A stretch of 64,000 nt of DNA, taken from Alphaproteobacteria bacterium. Its GTDB lineage: Bacteria > Pseudomonadota > Alphaproteobacteria > JAGOMX01. Positions 9,524 through 42,110 of the stretch are shown piece after piece. The stretch's first letter is position 1. Every line of letters starts with the position of its first letter. Position numbers and translations under genes: made by a program. Where the stretch lies: positions 18,082 through 82,081 of the forward strand of contig JBGSQK010000020.1 of NCBI GenBank assembly GCA_041738135.1. Reading direction: 5' to 3'. Below the pieces are notes generated by a model. That model saw only the letters and a list, made by a program, of their open reading frames with translations. It searched no databases and was not told the DNA's origin.

Positions 9524-9655
9524 CCATGTTTAAATATATTACACATTGATTAATTTATAGTTAATTATTTGATGTAATACGCGAATTTTTTGCGATTTTC
9601 CAGACCCCAATATACGTCATGGAGAGTTGTTGTAGTGGAAACAAAATGACAAAAC

Positions 9656-9774
9656 CCCCGTCATTGCGAGCCCTCTTGGGGCGTGGCAATCTACTGAGGT
9701 TTGTCCGCTCGCTAAAGGTTGCTAAAACGAAAAAAGTAGATTGCCACGCCCCAAGAGGGGCTCGCAATGACGGG
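9656..9774. repeat. MITE-like palindromic element, family B (CCCCGTCATTGCGAGCCCCTCTTGGGGCGTGGCAATCTAC...GTAGATTGCCACGCCCCAAGAGGGGCTCGCAATGACGGG), copy 1
   Basis: About 119 bp with roughly 40-bp terminal inverted repeats. Copies lie at 9879, 10365 and 38797. Confidence 0.85.
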
Positions 9775-9878
9775 TGTGGGGTCGTCTTTATTAAAATTTA
9801 CCGCATTTTAGGTGTCGAGTTGCTTCTGTTGCTTCTAATGACGAAGGATTGTTTTAGGGTCACCAAAATGCCCAACCT

Positions 9879-9995
9879 CCGTCATTGCGAGCCCCTCTTG
9901 GGGCGTGGCAAACTACTTTCTTCGCTTCAGACTTATGCAAAACGGCAACACCAAAGTAGATTGCCACGCCCCAAGAGGGGCTCGCAATGACGGGG
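9879..9995. repeat. MITE-like palindromic element, family B, copy 2
   Basis: It has the same termini as copy 1 and sits 105 bp from it. Confidence 0.85.
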
Positions 9996-10289: not shown

Positions 10290-10364
10290 ATAGTTTTCCC
10301 CCCCTATTTTTGGAGAAACATATCAAATTTGGACATTGATGTGAATAAATAAATCAGCCACCAC

Positions 10365-10486
10365 CCCCGCCATTGCGAGCCCCGCTTGGGGCGTGGCAAT
10401 CTATTTTCTTCGCAGCAATTTACTAATCAATAACGGCGGCACCACAGTAGATTGCCGCACCCCAAGAAGGGCTCGCAATGACGGGG
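10365..10486. repeat. MITE-like palindromic element, family B, copy 3 (slightly diverged termini)
   Basis: CCCCCGCCATTGCGAGCCCCGCTTGGGGCGTGGCAATCTA...GTAGATTGCCGCACCCCAAGAAGGGCTCGCAATGACGGGG. Confidence 0.8.
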
Positions 10487-38181: not shown

Positions 38182-38691
38182 ATGATGACTGAAGACTGCT
38201 TAACAAATAAAACGAAAATATCACAGATAAACCTTGGAATTAAAAAAGAAGAGGTTTCGCATGTGGTTCAAATGCTTTCAACTATTTTATCGAGCACCTA
38301 TGTACTATACATGAAAACCCAAGGATTCCATTGGAATGTGGTGGGACCAAACTTTTATAGTCTGCATAAGCTCAGTGAAGAACATTACGAGGAAATGGCC
38401 GAAGCCATTGACACCATCGCCGAACGCATTAGAGCCCTAGGTCATATTGCGCCTGCAAATTACAGTTGGTATGAAAAACTGTCCATCATTAAGACAACTA
38501 CGGAACTCAAAGACACCAAGTCCCAATTAATTGATCTCTTATCAGATCACGAAGCATTAGCTAGTCTTCTGAAAGAAGGTTTTGATCTGGCGGAACAAGC
38601 CAAAGATCATGCTACAGGTGATTTATTTGTAGAACGCATGCGCTCACATGAAAAAACCGCCTGGATGCTAAGATCAGTTCTTGGCGACTAA
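38182..38691 (+). CDS. dps: Dps (DNA protection during starvation) ferritin-like protein
   Basis: YVLYMKTQGFHWNVVGPNFYSLHKLSEEHYEEMAEAIDTIAERI carries the ferroxidase-site H/D/E pattern of Dps. Confidence 0.8.
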   Translation: MMTEDCLTNKTKISQINLGIKKEEVSHVVQMLSTILSSTYVLYMKTQGFHWNVVGPNFYSLHKLSEEHYEEMAEAIDTIAERIRALGHIAPANYSWYEKLSIIKTTTELKDTKSQLIDLLSDHEALASLLKEGFDLAEQAKDHATGDLFVERMRSHEKTAWMLRSVLGD

Positions 38692-38796
38692 GGTTTCTTA
38701 ATATTAATAAGACAACAATACAGTTCACGCGCCACCGTCATTGCGGGTAACTCAACCCCCCAAAAGGGGTAAATTTAAATCAATGACAAACCTACT

Positions 38797-38916
38797 CCCG
38801 TCATTGCGAGCCCCTCTTGGGGCGCGGCAATCTACTGTGACGTAACCGTTTAACATCAGTCTGCGGTAGAGAAGAAAGTAGATTGCCACGCCCCAAGAGG
38901 GGCTCGCAATGACGGG
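38797..38916. repeat. MITE-like palindromic element, family B, copy 4
   Basis: CCCGTCATTGCGAGCCCCTCTTGGGGCGCGGCAATCTACTG...AGTAGATTGCCACGCCCCAAGAGGGGCTCGCAATGACGGG. Confidence 0.85.
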
Positions 38917-39098: not shown

Positions 39099-40004
39099 AT
39101 GGCTAAACCAGTATTTATACCCAATGACATAAACTGGGAACTACTCAAACGCTTTAATGTGTGCGCGAATAGCTTTGGTTTTAATGAAGCTGCAAAAAAA
39201 ATAGGCACCAGCCCGTCAGCTCTACTCGGTCAGATTGAAGTACTTGAAAAGCAGATAGGCTTTAACTTATTTGAACGGGTAAACAGAAATAGGTCCAAAA
39301 CCTTAACACCCGAAGGCCAGATGCTGAAGGAAGCAACTCAACAGATATTTCTGTTTTTAAGCACCCCCATGAATGAGCAGAAAAAATTAAGCAAATCTCA
39401 AGCTCGCATTTTAAGGGTGATAACCACAGAAGGGCTGGCCAAAACAATTCTGGTTAAACCCATTAACCAATATTTAGAAGATCACCCTGATATTCAATTA
39501 CAACTGATCACCAAATCCACAGCAGATTTAATCGAGCCTGGCGAGGTGGTGATTCGTTCAAATTTTGTGGAGCAAAAGCACGTACGAAGGGAATATCTGC
39601 TCAATTACAAAATGAAATTGTATGCAAGCAAAACCTACATTAATAAATTCGGCAGGCCTGCATCTCCACTGGATCTTTCAAATCACAAGGTACTCATATT
39701 CAACAGTTTGGGCGCAAAGGATTCATCATTTCTCTGGAAGCCTGACCTCAATATTTACCTTACTCCCACGGTAGTATCCGATTCCTTCGATTTTCTTTTG
39801 AAGCAATGCTACGAAGGACAAGGTATTTTTGAGTTAGCAGACCTATATCTGGAAAAAGATGAATTGGTAGACTTGTTTCCCGATATGTCCGGGGAACAGT
39901 TTGATCTTTATCTGTCCTATAACAAGAAAAGTACTTACGAAGATCTTATTCCTGATTTCGTTAAATTTCTTAAGAAATCCATCGGCGATAAAGCCAAGGA
40001 ATAA
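39099..40004 (+). CDS. LysR-family transcriptional regulator
   Basis: An N-terminal wHTH (FNEAAKKIGTSPSALLGQIEVLEKQIGFNLFER) is followed by a roughly 200-aa substrate-binding domain. Confidence 0.75.
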   Translation: MAKPVFIPNDINWELLKRFNVCANSFGFNEAAKKIGTSPSALLGQIEVLEKQIGFNLFERVNRNRSKTLTPEGQMLKEATQQIFLFLSTPMNEQKKLSKSQARILRVITTEGLAKTILVKPINQYLEDHPDIQLQLITKSTADLIEPGEVVIRSNFVEQKHVRREYLLNYKMKLYASKTYINKFGRPASPLDLSNHKVLIFNSLGAKDSSFLWKPDLNIYLTPTVVSDSFDFLLKQCYEGQGIFELADLYLEKDELVDLFPDMSGEQFDLYLSYNKKSTYEDLIPDFVKFLKKSIGDKAKE

Positions 40005-40200: not shown

Positions 40201-40211
40201 TTGTATTTCCC

Positions 40212-40808
40212 TCACGAAATCCTAAGGATACTCTCCGAAGATCGCCTACGATGTATAAAAGCCTCATAAGTTTGAGCATTCATAGGCACTATACCGAGTA
40301 CATAGGGCCGACTATCGTTAAAAGGAGAAGCAATCTGGGCCTGTTTCTCAAAAGGCCACAACCCCATGTTTAAAATATCCTTATGCCCTTCAGTCGGCAG
40401 AACTGTAATAAATGCTTTAATTTTCTGAGCAATACTAATGGTCTTTAAAGAATCATACATATTCTGATAAAAATCCTGGCGAATCAGGTTAAACATTTTT
40501 TCTGATTCTTCTTTTGCAGTCTCACCAGGCAGATGAAAAAAAATACGACTCATTTCCCAGATTTTTTGATTGGACTTAAATTGCAAACGCTTCAGCAAAT
40601 CTGAGGTCAATACAGGCTGATCAATAGGAATCAAACGGGCCCCACCAATAACACCAAACTTCTTATGACTGTAAATAAGATAATGCGTTTGATCATGATC
40701 AAATTCATCACGCGCCGACTTTCCATGCTCTAGCTCAATCAACGAAAACATTTGCTTCATTTCCTTACTATACTCGGCCCTTTTCTTAGGGGGAATCAGG
40801 TTAAACAT
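40212..40808 (-). CDS. LuxI-fold acyltransferase (acyl-homoserine-lactone synthase-like; autoinducer synthase family)
   Basis: Collinear matches to LuxI catalytic blocks are DEFDHDQTHYLIYSHKKFGVIGGARLIP (compare LuxI ..DEYD....YIY......VSGCWRLLP) and KIWEMSRIFF (compare ..VELSRFAV). The N-terminal R/W block is only partly conserved. The start is taken at MFNLIPP. Confidence 0.5.
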   Translation of the reverse strand: MFNLIPPKKRAEYSKEMKQMFSLIELEHGKSARDEFDHDQTHYLIYSHKKFGVIGGARLIPIDQPVLTSDLLKRLQFKSNQKIWEMSRIFFHLPGETAKEESEKMFNLIRQDFYQNMYDSLKTISIAQKIKAFITVLPTEGHKDILNMGLWPFEKQAQIASPFNDSRPYVLGIVPMNAQTYEAFIHRRRSSESILRIS

Positions 40809-40996
40809 TACATTAACTCCTAAATAATTATTACCATCTCTTGACACATAGGGTCTTTTTTCAAGATTTCAATAGCTTTGAATAAAAAGAAGTGGGGAAC
40901 TAATGACCTTCATGCAAAGTTATTGGTTAATCTGCACCCTATAAAGCCTAGTCCACCTAAGTATGTAAGTATTTAGTTGCAAAAGTGGTGAAAGGT

Positions 40997-41179
40997 TCAT
41001 TCATGCAGTTCTTGAGTGAGGGCGTTCAAAAAACTCTTCACCACTTTTGCTACTAAATACTCACTTATTCTTAGCTCTGCACAAAGCTTGTCTATCAGTT
41101 TGTATAAGGAATATTTATTTTGAAAATCCAATAAAAAGACCATATTTGTTTTTTTCCAAACTTTTTTGCTCTCAGTCAC
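40997..41179 (-). pseudogene. Truncated HU/IHF-family gene fragment (N-terminal helices only)
   Basis: NKYSLYKLIDKLCAELRISEYLVAKVVKSFLNALTQEL matches the HU/IHF N-terminal helix-turn-helix. A stop follows where the beta-arm (GFGxF) should begin, and the truncation point coincides with an inverted duplication of the same coding segment. Confidence 0.35.
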
Positions 41180-41272
41180 TCATCTTCAGATCCTTCTCCC
41201 ACAAGGCTTTCAAGACAAGATATTATTTATTTAATTTTTTTTGACACTATATGAAAATAATTATAATTTTTT

Positions 41273-41301
41273 CTTGACAAATCATACTTTTATAGCTATA
41301 T
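41273..41301 (+). promoter_or_regulatory. Sigma-70-like promoter (TTGACA-17-TATATT)
   Basis: A near-consensus -35 (41273-41278) and -10 (41296-41301) with 17-bp spacing lie in an AT-rich region. A second TTGACA is at 41241. Confidence 0.45.
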
Positions 41302-41304
41302 TAT

Positions 41305-41630
41305 GCTTAAGGGTAAGAGATGGAACTCTTCCCCTCGTGTACACAAAAACGAAAGGCATCCGGCGTTTGGGCCCCCGCGTAACCCAAACAAGTCTGGAAA
41401 TGAGCGGCGCGGTGAGCAAGTAAGGGATATGGTATGTAAAGTGCCATATCTACCGTACGGTTAATGCAAAAAGGTGACGAGGAAGGTATCCCTATAAGCC
41501 AAAAACAACCTAAAAAATCCAAACGGTGGAAGCCGGATGATGACTGAGACGACATTCAGAGATCAAAAGGCTTCCACCACCTTATAAAGGAAGATCGGGC
41601 AAAGTAGCCCAATCAAGTGAGTAAAGGAGT
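41305..41630 (+). ncRNA. Candidate structured ncRNA or long 5' leader (unassigned family)
   Basis: This is a roughly 330-nt ORF-poor transcript region downstream of the promoter, with several stable hairpins. Examples are GGTGGAAGCC-N34-GGCTTCCACC at 41525-41578 and GATATGG-N11-CCATATC. It ends at the SD (AAGGAG) of a 77-codon ORF. Confidence 0.3.
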
Positions 41631-41634
41631 ATGA

Positions 41635-41868
41635 ATGATACTAGATGATAAACGTTATAAGATAGAGAAAGTTATTAATAGATTTGAGCGGATTTCTCGA
41701 AGATCTGAATTGAAACAAGATTACGCCTCGTCAATTAAGGCGGGGAAAGTAGCCTTGGACTATTTTGTTGATCAAAAAAAAGAAACGCCTGAAGAAGAAA
41801 CCATATGGGACAAAGATAAGTTGATCAGTCTACTGGATTACCTCGAGAAACAGCTCGAACAACCGTAA
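41635..41868 (+). CDS. Hypothetical small protein (77 aa)
   Basis: It has an ATG with a consensus SD (AAAGGAG) 7 nt upstream. The product is charged/helical with no recognised family. Confidence 0.45.
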   Translation: MILDDKRYKIEKVINRFERISRRSELKQDYASSIKAGKVALDYFVDQKKETPEEETIWDKDKLISLLDYLEKQLEQP

Positions 41869-42033
41869 ACGCAAGCCATTTATTGCAACTGAAAACCATC
41901 ATTATCAACAATGATGCAGCACATGCACGCCCTTTAAACAGAGTGTGTGCCAAATTTTCAGCACCAAGATCCAATTTTAAACAACGAAAAATGTTTACCT
42001 GAGGCTTGCTTTCAGTTAGATTCTCTCTTACGC

Positions 42034-42110
42034 GCGTCCTTAGCTCAGTTGGATAGAGCACCGGCCTTCTAAGCCGGGTGTCGCAGGTTCGAATCCTGCA
42101 GGACGCGCCA
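42034..42110 (+). tRNA. tRNA-Arg (anticodon TCT), CCA encoded
   Basis: GCGTCCTTAGCTCAGTTGGATAGAGCACCGGCCTTCTAAGCCGGGTGTCGCAGGTTCGAATCCTGCAGGACGCGCCA has anticodon loop CTTCTAA. Confidence 0.9.

Follow-up and report, generated by a model that had tools for sequence, protein, structure and literature searches.

What is encoded by the long, ORF-poor stretch of DNA that separates a divergently oriented LuxI/GNAT-like gene from a small 77-aa ORF in this uncultured alphaproteobacterium? In the 64,000-nt stretch analysed here (hereafter the window), a preliminary description had drawn attention to a near-consensus sigma-70 promoter followed by a ~330-nt region with stable hairpins, and had left open whether this region is a riboswitch, a leader of the small protein or an independent small RNA (sRNA). 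The intergenic space, originally delimited as 40848-41634, widens to 40809-41634 when the upstream gene is taken to begin at the ATG consistent with the 198-aa length found throughout its family, and a candidate RNA at 41309-41590 would account for most of this otherwise unannotated ~830-bp region. The locus is organized as follows, with positions given in the window.

38182-38691, plus strand: Dps gene (context)
39099-40004, plus strand: LysR-type regulator gene (context)
40212-40808, minus strand: LuxI/GNAT-like gene, 198 aa, divergent from the RNA (context)
41274-41302, plus strand: sigma-70-type promoter TTGACA-17-TATATT, 11/12 consensus positions
41309-41590, plus strand: candidate non-coding RNA, ~282 nt; conserved in a sister species, non-coding, no Rfam family
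41591-41634, plus strand: spacer specific to this genome, containing a small hairpin (41593-41614) as well as the SD AAAGGAG (41623-41629); not conserved in the sister species
41635-41868, plus strand: 77-aa ORF, ATG at 41635
42034-42110, plus strand: tRNA-Arg(TCT), ancestral neighbour of the LuxI-like gene (Rfam, ARAGORN)

A conserved, predicted sigma-70-type promoter

The promoter TTGACA-17-TATATT is present, one base away from its earlier placement at 41273-41301, its real span being 41274-41302. It is the sole site matching at least 11 of 12 consensus positions on either strand of the window. As block-wise dinucleotide shuffles yield about 1.1 such sites per window, the match by itself lies within chance; it is the position of the promoter and its conservation in a sister species that make it credible. 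The comparison was made with L011 (JGI 3300050211), a contig from a different species of the same lineage that was reached via the divergently oriented LuxI-like gene (95%-identical protein copy) and is the sole relative contig with the RNA available for comparison. Across the promoter segment (41241-41308), 66 of 69 positions (96%) are identical in L011 and both hexamers and their spacing are unchanged, against a divergence of ~27% in the neutral flanks (binomial P ~1e-6). The predicted start at 41309 is an A in the window and a G in L011. An independent sRNA gene would be expected to have a promoter of its own, and the predicted 11/12 sigma-70 match, with L011-identical hexamers and spacing, provides one that is probably strong and constitutive.

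Mosaic conservation of a candidate RNA unit

L011 aligns with window positions 40208-41534 at 87.8% identity, and the counterpart of the RNA occupies positions 1921-2186 of L011, on its minus strand. Two neutral yardsticks are available for the same pair of sequences, namely the LysR and LuxI-like genes, whose third codon positions are 28-29% diverged, and the intergenic segment 41069-41240, which is 27% diverged. The candidate RNA, whose 5' end is predicted from the promoter and whose 3' end is predicted from the point at which homology with L011 stops, falls into the following parts.

41311-41334, plus strand: 5'-terminal hairpin H1, GGG-AAGAG / CUCUU-CCC; begins 2 nt past the predicted start, 100% identical in L011
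41335-41357, plus strand: hypervariable first linker; 9 substitutions and one 1-nt indel in 23 nt relative to L011
41358-41474, plus strand: conserved GC-rich core, 117 nt, holding hairpins H2 and H3
41359-41398, plus strand: hairpin H2, within the core
41401-41463, plus strand: long irregular hairpin H3, within the core, apical stem 41425-41451
41473-41500, plus strand: small hairpin
41499-41524, plus strand: variable linker, A/C-rich and G-free, preceding H4
41525-41578, plus strand: 3' hairpin H4, putative terminator or 3' stabiliser; 9-10-bp GC-rich basal stem conserved, apex variable

The core differs from L011 by three substitutions and one 1-nt indel in 117 nt (97% identical; binomial P ~1.6e-11). 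The first linker is ~57% identical, the second linker or patch (41475-41523) carries 11 substitutions (~75% identical), and identity drops to 38% over 41591-41640. Selection on a modular RNA would produce a mosaic of conservation, whereas a recent block transfer would leave contiguous low divergence. The mosaic seen here, at a scale of 20-100 nt, argues for functional constraint and speaks against recent block transfer. Between the window and L011, the RNA at 41309-41590 is thus conserved above the neutral level independently of the flanking genes, and it appears that the RNA gene has been kept, whereas the adjoining DNA on its 3' side is exchanged between the sister species. At ~282 nt, the conserved unit is shorter than the ~330 nt first proposed; the last ~45 nt before the small ORF are specific to this genome.

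The unit also stands out in composition. Its GC content is 47.5%, and that of the core 51%, compared with 27-31% in flanking intergenic DNA and 37-39% in neighbouring genes, yet a GC content equal to or above that of the core occurs in 13% of the 117-nt segments of the 64 kb. The hairpins described earlier are real, with H1 at the 5' end and a perfect 10-bp stem at the 3' end. Compared with shuffled sequences, the fold of 41309-41595 is stable (z = -3.25), owing mainly to the 3' hairpin. The stability of the conserved core, taken as the 149 nt of 41355-41503, is not significant in either species (z = -0.64 in the window and +0.72 in L011), and the full-length L011 RNA gives z = -1.06.

Coding potential and strand-specific pairing

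Three ORFs lie inside the RNA region, two of 53 and 60 aa on the plus strand and one of 82 aa on the minus strand (41307-41555), none with a match in Pfam. In L011, no reading frame runs unshifted through the 5' third of the RNA, because of two 1-nt indels. The 14 substitutions that separate the 82-aa minus-strand ORF, the one long frame, from L011 are spread 2:5:7 over its codon positions, compared with 8:2:58 for a neighbouring real gene, and amount to 4 synonymous and 6 non-synonymous codon changes. Neither its start codon nor its C-terminal frame is conserved in L011, owing to a 1-nt indel, and to the right of this ORF the window and L011 share no conserved sequence able to hold a minus-strand promoter. 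Among 1.84 billion representative proteins it has a single match, to an artefactual 986-aa sequence of tandem repeats. A short ORF beginning MELFP at the 5' hairpin was also considered and rejected, since its frame changes in L011. The absence of a credible ORF noted in the preliminary description is thus borne out by the missing Pfam matches, the frame-breaking indels and the lack of codon-position bias, and 41309-41590 is non-coding as judged from its indels, its codon-position pattern and the absence of protein homologues.

The substitutions do preserve pairing on one strand. In the RNAalifold consensus of the plus strand, which comprises 57 internal pairs, four pairs are changed on one side (U-A to U·G, U·G to C-G, A-U to G·U and U·G to C-G), all four are kept via G·U, and none is broken. 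All three core substitutions sit in stems and retain their pair via G·U on the plus strand. On the minus strand, the changed pairs and several invariant G·U pairs would become A·C mismatches. Because the consensus fold was derived from both sequences, the pairing test was rerun with folds of each single sequence, in which the pairs broken by the substitutions between the two species were counted against random placement.

Window fold, plus strand: 5 pairs broken, 10.9 expected, P = 0.005
L011 fold, plus strand: 7 pairs broken, 11.1 expected, P = 0.05
Window fold, minus strand: 9 pairs broken, 12.2 expected, P = 0.08
L011 fold, minus strand: 9 pairs broken, 9.5 expected, P = 0.5

No compensatory double change was seen in the helices in this two-sequence comparison. 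With two distinct sequences and no such change, the support for a plus-strand secondary structure is modest.

The 3' hairpin and the predicted end of the RNA

The basal helix of H4 (41525-41534/41569-41578) forms a perfect 10 bp in the window, together with inner stems, and the hairpin is far more stable than shuffled sequences in both species (z = -7.6 in the window and -3.9 in L011). In L011 the arms are kept and the apex is replaced by one that is ~19-21 nt shorter. H4 is followed by ACC in the window or ACU in L011 and then by UUAUAAAG; neither the window tail, ACCUUAUAAAG, nor its L011 counterpart, ACUUUAUAAAG, contains a U-run. The earlier observation of a 10-bp stem lacking a U-tract therefore stands, ACCUUAUAAAG being what follows the stem. 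A terminator scan did not call H4 (41525-41578). As H4 lacks a proper U-tract and such a call, we infer a discrete 3' end from the homology with L011, which ends at ~41590, 12 nt beyond H4, and so supports a unit boundary there. Most likely H4 terminates transcription weakly and without a factor, protects the 3' end, or does both, and the transcript in this genome may simply run on into the 77-aa ORF.

A Logan contig from the same organism (L001, SRR28170464) stops at window position ~41531, inside H4, and the window and L011 begin to differ at 41534, almost exactly where this contig ends. The position of the contig end suggests strain-level variation of the hairpin apex within the SRR28170464 sample.

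The small ORF downstream

Downstream of the spacer, the Shine-Dalgarno sequence (AAAGGAG, 41623-41629) and the 77-codon ORF (41635-41868) are found as previously described. The 77-aa protein has one homologue among 5.8 billion proteins, 75% identical and of equal length, and no match in Pfam, PHROG or NCBIfam; its AlphaFold model consists of three helices predicted with medium confidence (pLDDT 69). It is probably a real small helical protein, encoded outside the conserved RNA unit.

In L011, the 77-aa ORF is absent downstream of the RNA. There, H4 is followed by ~75 nt of unrelated sequence, a repeat copy, a 93-aa ORF of no relation to the 77-aa one, and a gene for an ABC transporter, and the nearest same-strand ORF, itself unrelated, lies ~415 nt further on, behind the repeat element. 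A riboswitch or leader is expected to travel with the gene that it regulates, and such linkage to a regulated downstream gene is missing here, L011 having the RNA and no 77-aa ORF. A candidate antiterminator can be drawn in the window, in which 41355-41370 forms a 16-nt alternative pairing with 41519-41534 in the 5' arm region of H4, and both L011 substitutions that fall inside it break pairs (two sequences compared). Taken together, the missing ORF and the disrupted alternative pairing make it less likely that the 77-aa gene has a riboswitch or attenuator of its own here. Of the three candidates initially put forward, the independent sRNA is consequently the favoured one, and the riboswitch and the leader lose ground to it, since L011 keeps the RNA without the ORF.

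No convincing promoter for the 77-aa ORF was found between 41560 and 41634, and the ORF is probably expressed by read-through past H4, in this genome only. Such read-through would be an accident of the downstream DNA and not the purpose of the RNA.

Searches against known RNA families and replicons

Rfam 15 was searched with all 4227 models, which cover tmRNA/alpha_tmRNA, RNaseP_bact_a, 6S, bacterial SRP, riboswitches, group I/II introns and large ncRNAs. At the gathering score nothing was found in 41241-41634, so that no family is assigned to the region, and at E<=10, in either 1.35 kb or 301 nt, the matches were noise only (SIB_RNA, 15.8 bits; snoR9, 10.3 bits). ARAGORN found no tmRNA in the window. 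Both programs agree with the initial inspection by eye, which had found no match to tmRNA, RNase P, SRP or 6S RNA. The CCACCA-like 3' arm had suggested a tmRNA, an idea rejected on three grounds: the ARAGORN result, the replacement of ACC by ACU in L011, and an A-U pair where position 3 of the presumed acceptor stem should be G·U. Inspection of 41309-41590 also showed no T-loop sequence, and the in-frame segment that might have encoded a tag peptide is completely different in the window and L011. The segment CCGUACGGUU resembles group II intron domain V, a reading that finds no support from Rfam.

Searches of plasmids and phages by blastn with the 1-kb region gave no similarity, and two core 24-26-mers were absent from viral contigs in two pattern scans. 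In 150-220 kb of retrieved loci plus the window, searches by nhmmer, by blastn and with a core-based covariance model recovered the RNA in the window, the identical L001 and L011 only. It is accordingly known in two closely related uncultured alphaproteobacteria, and appears single-copy in the window. Possible targets gave little guidance. The conserved CCCUAUAAGCC is complementary to the putative LuxI-like 5' UTR (repeat D2), a match that is taken as chance because conservation in L011 does not extend to the partner site, and an RNAduplex scan of the 47 translation-start regions in the window returned only unrealistically long, uninformative duplexes.

Screens of intergenic regions by GC content and length catalogue GC-rich ncRNA candidates (PMC11109978), and the present RNA resembles these candidates and orphan trans-encoded sRNAs in its own sigma-70-type promoter and its 5' and GC-rich 3' hairpins. 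It further shares with orphan sRNAs that it is non-coding, intergenic, GC-rich relative to its flanks and conserved in a narrow lineage only. Unlike most base-pairing sRNAs, it is longer (~280 nt) and its constraint takes the form of a contiguous 117-nt block with no short seed, and unlike Hfq-type sRNAs, its 3' hairpin lacks the typical U-tail. The alphaproteobacterial alpha-r/ar families in Rfam, including ar14, ar15/AbcR and ar35, are comparable in apparent host class, intergenic location, the presence of a promoter, multiple hairpins and a pyrimidine-rich stretch (CUCUUCCCC), yet none of their models matches at E<=10 and the pyrimidine stretch of this RNA lies in a stem and not in a loop. 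Riboswitches and structured 5' leaders likewise sit directly upstream of a same-strand ORF, with a terminator-like hairpin before the SD; the RNA differs from them in being unlinked to the ORF in the sister species, in matching no known aptamer and in having an unsupported alternative pairing. In size, strong promoter, structure and GC enrichment it is also similar to two-piece tmRNA, RNase P RNA and 6S RNA. It differs from them in that ARAGORN and Rfam are negative, that inspection reveals neither a T-arm nor RNase P conserved-region sequence, and that its ends form no 6S-like rod in any predicted fold. It is also missing from the equivalent loci of distant relatives, although a housekeeping gene might be sited elsewhere in their genomes.

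Relatives and rearrangement of the locus

The host genes that show alphaproteobacterial affinity are those for a DUF465 protein, an NDUFAF5-like methyltransferase and RecJ. In two relatives whose loci were retrieved, L013 and L022, tRNA-Arg(TCT) lies 169-174 nt from the LuxI-like start and there is no trace of the RNA. The corresponding gap is 1225 nt in the window, the LuxI-like proteins of the relatives with the short gap being 59-68% identical. As these distant relatives have the tRNA gene close by and no RNA, the RNA and the 77-aa ORF sit in a lineage-specific block of ~1 kb. Where the methyltransferase is 55-64% identical, the genes of the relatives are arranged differently (PFK, DUF465, methyltransferase) and the RNA is absent. 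A metagenome scan with the LuxI-like alignment returned one locus (L012), in which the RNA is absent, and a genome-collection scan with RecJ peptide patterns, which are not conserved, found only an unrelated Lachnospiraceae locus. In a closer relative, L003 (methyltransferase 83% identical), tRNA-Arg and its upstream region are kept and the contig ends before the RNA. The region around the RNA and the small ORF has undergone repeated rearrangement. No duplicated 3' half of tRNA-Arg, such as would mark an att site, was found.

In L003 (2438-2665, corresponding to window ~41808), the 77-aa ORF is cut to its last ~20 codons (WDKDKLISLLDYLEKQLELP), and an unrelated gene on the opposite strand (MHYDELDFEERLAIAEYDGNQ...) abuts the remnant; this junction is a second rearrangement within 250 bp of tRNA-Arg. 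The tRNA gene and 85 nt of its upstream promoter region are identical in L003 and the window. The tRNA-Arg(TCT) promoter, TGTTTACC-17-TAGATTCT (41950-42033; L013 3827-3900), is conserved in the window, in L003 and in the much more distant L013, so the tRNA need not rely on read-through from the RNA or the small ORF.

Repeats were also observed. A family of ~125-nt palindromic MITE/REP-like repeats, matching itself in both orientations, has at least four copies in the window (9647-9783, 9871-9994, 10363-10485 and 38791-38916) and one in L011 (1725-1849). Between the Dps and LysR genes, where the window carries one copy, L011 has none; the L011 copy lies ~75 nt downstream of the RNA, beside the synteny break. 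A separate inverted repeat (40962-40997/41032-41067), with 36-nt arms and a 34-nt loop, separates the LuxI-like gene from the promoter of the RNA. This repeat is very stable relative to shuffles (z = -7.6 on the plus and -9.2 on the minus strand), single-copy in the window and 89% conserved in L011, where two pairs are changed on both sides and kept (T-A to A-T and G-C to A-T) and two others are broken. Its likeness in Rfam is to generic long-hairpin miRNA precursors only, far below threshold, and it may belong to the LuxI-like 5' UTR, represent another small RNA or function at the level of DNA. A 28-nt direct repeat with a TTGACA at 40822-40849 was set aside, its hexamer not being conserved in L011.

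The 198-aa LuxI-like family comprises 19 clusters among 5.8 billion proteins and is weakly similar to acyl-homoserine-lactone synthases and GNATs. Its gene always lies beside a regulator of the LysR type, not the LuxR type, and usually near Dps (window, L013, L018 and L022). The LuxI-like/LysR pair may be an uncharacterised signal- or acyl-amide-synthase module.

Discussion

By a slight balance of probability, we regard 41309-41590 as an independent, single-copy plus-strand sRNA gene and not as the leader of the downstream small gene, a case built on two distinct sequences, those of the window and L011. According to this model, the sigma-70 promoter at 41274-41302 would drive constitutive transcription from ~41309, and the 5' end of the transcript would be protected by hairpin H1, two bases past the start. 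The 117-nt core, with its two hairpin domains between two fast-evolving linkers, would be the functional part, and the long GC-rich hairpin at 41525-41578 with its short U/A tail would end or stabilise the RNA, giving a length of ~270-280 nt. The RNA would then work in trans, with its conserved unpaired stretches available for base pairing or, alternatively, by binding a protein, and polymerases reading through H4 would in this genome also make the mRNA of the 77-aa ORF.

The main competing explanation, that the RNA is a long cis-acting 5' leader (riboswitch, attenuator or protein-binding) of the 77-aa mRNA with H4 as a regulated terminator or processing site, we hold to be unlikely. It would fit the lack of a U-tract terminator between promoter and ORF, the lack of a convincing separate promoter for the ORF, the strong SD 45 nt past the conserved unit, and an ORF that looks real by virtue of its equal-length, 75%-identical homologue; the 16-nt alternative pairing of 41355-41370 with the 5' arm region of H4 would even offer a switch. 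Yet L011 conserves the promoter and the RNA without the ORF, homology stops 12 nt past H4, the nearest same-strand ORF in that species is unrelated and ~415 nt further on behind a repeat, the L011 substitutions break the alternative pairing in two of two cases, and no riboswitch or leader family in Rfam matches at E<=10. Distinctly less probable is the idea that the RNA belongs to an acquired or rearrangement-prone ~1-kb module of promoter, RNA and small ORF between the LuxI-like gene and tRNA-Arg, in which the RNA would serve the module, by regulating or stabilising a variable cargo or by marking a recombination hot spot, and not the host. The short, RNA-free gap of 169-174 nt in relatives with 59-68%-identical LuxI-like proteins, against 1225 nt in the window, is in keeping with such a module, as are three junctions (after the RNA in L011, inside the small ORF in L003, and at the Logan contig end at ~41531) and a ~125-nt palindromic repeat family that is active in the lineage and adjoins the L011 junction. 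Against it, the locus shows no integrase, no transposase, no terminal repeats and no duplicated tRNA fragment, searches of plasmids, phages and viral contigs gave no match to the region, and the small ORF has no PHROG match; a module would in any case be compatible with, and not opposed to, the RNA being an sRNA.

It is very improbable that the conserved segment is no RNA at all, and instead a DNA element (a protein-binding or recombination site) or a small protein gene such as the 82-aa minus-strand ORF (41307-41555). This possibility draws on a minus-strand frame that is open in both genomes over ~50 shared codons and on a core without a thermodynamic signal. It is countered by the unconserved start codon and C-terminal frame of that ORF (1-nt indel), by substitutions without a third-position preference (2:5:7; synonymous in 4 codons, non-synonymous in 6), and by the lack of a conserved place for a minus-strand promoter and of protein homologues; in addition, a 117-nt DNA site straight after a conserved promoter would be unusual. 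A more far-reaching proposal, which we consider a long shot, is that the core and its freely evolving linkers represent the first of a new class of tertiary-structured RNA at a tRNA-Arg rearrangement hot spot, with read-through expressing variable downstream genes. Such an RNA would bind a protein or ligand, or be the component of a ribonucleoprotein, and would be specific to this uncultured alphaproteobacterial lineage.

Returning to the independent sRNA gene, the RNA is most likely a credible but fairly ordinary orphan bacterial sRNA. Nothing points to a new mechanism, and its value would lie mainly in annotation and as the seed of a covariance model. If transcribed as predicted, it would represent an uncatalogued sRNA family of a poorly sampled, uncultured alphaproteobacterial lineage.
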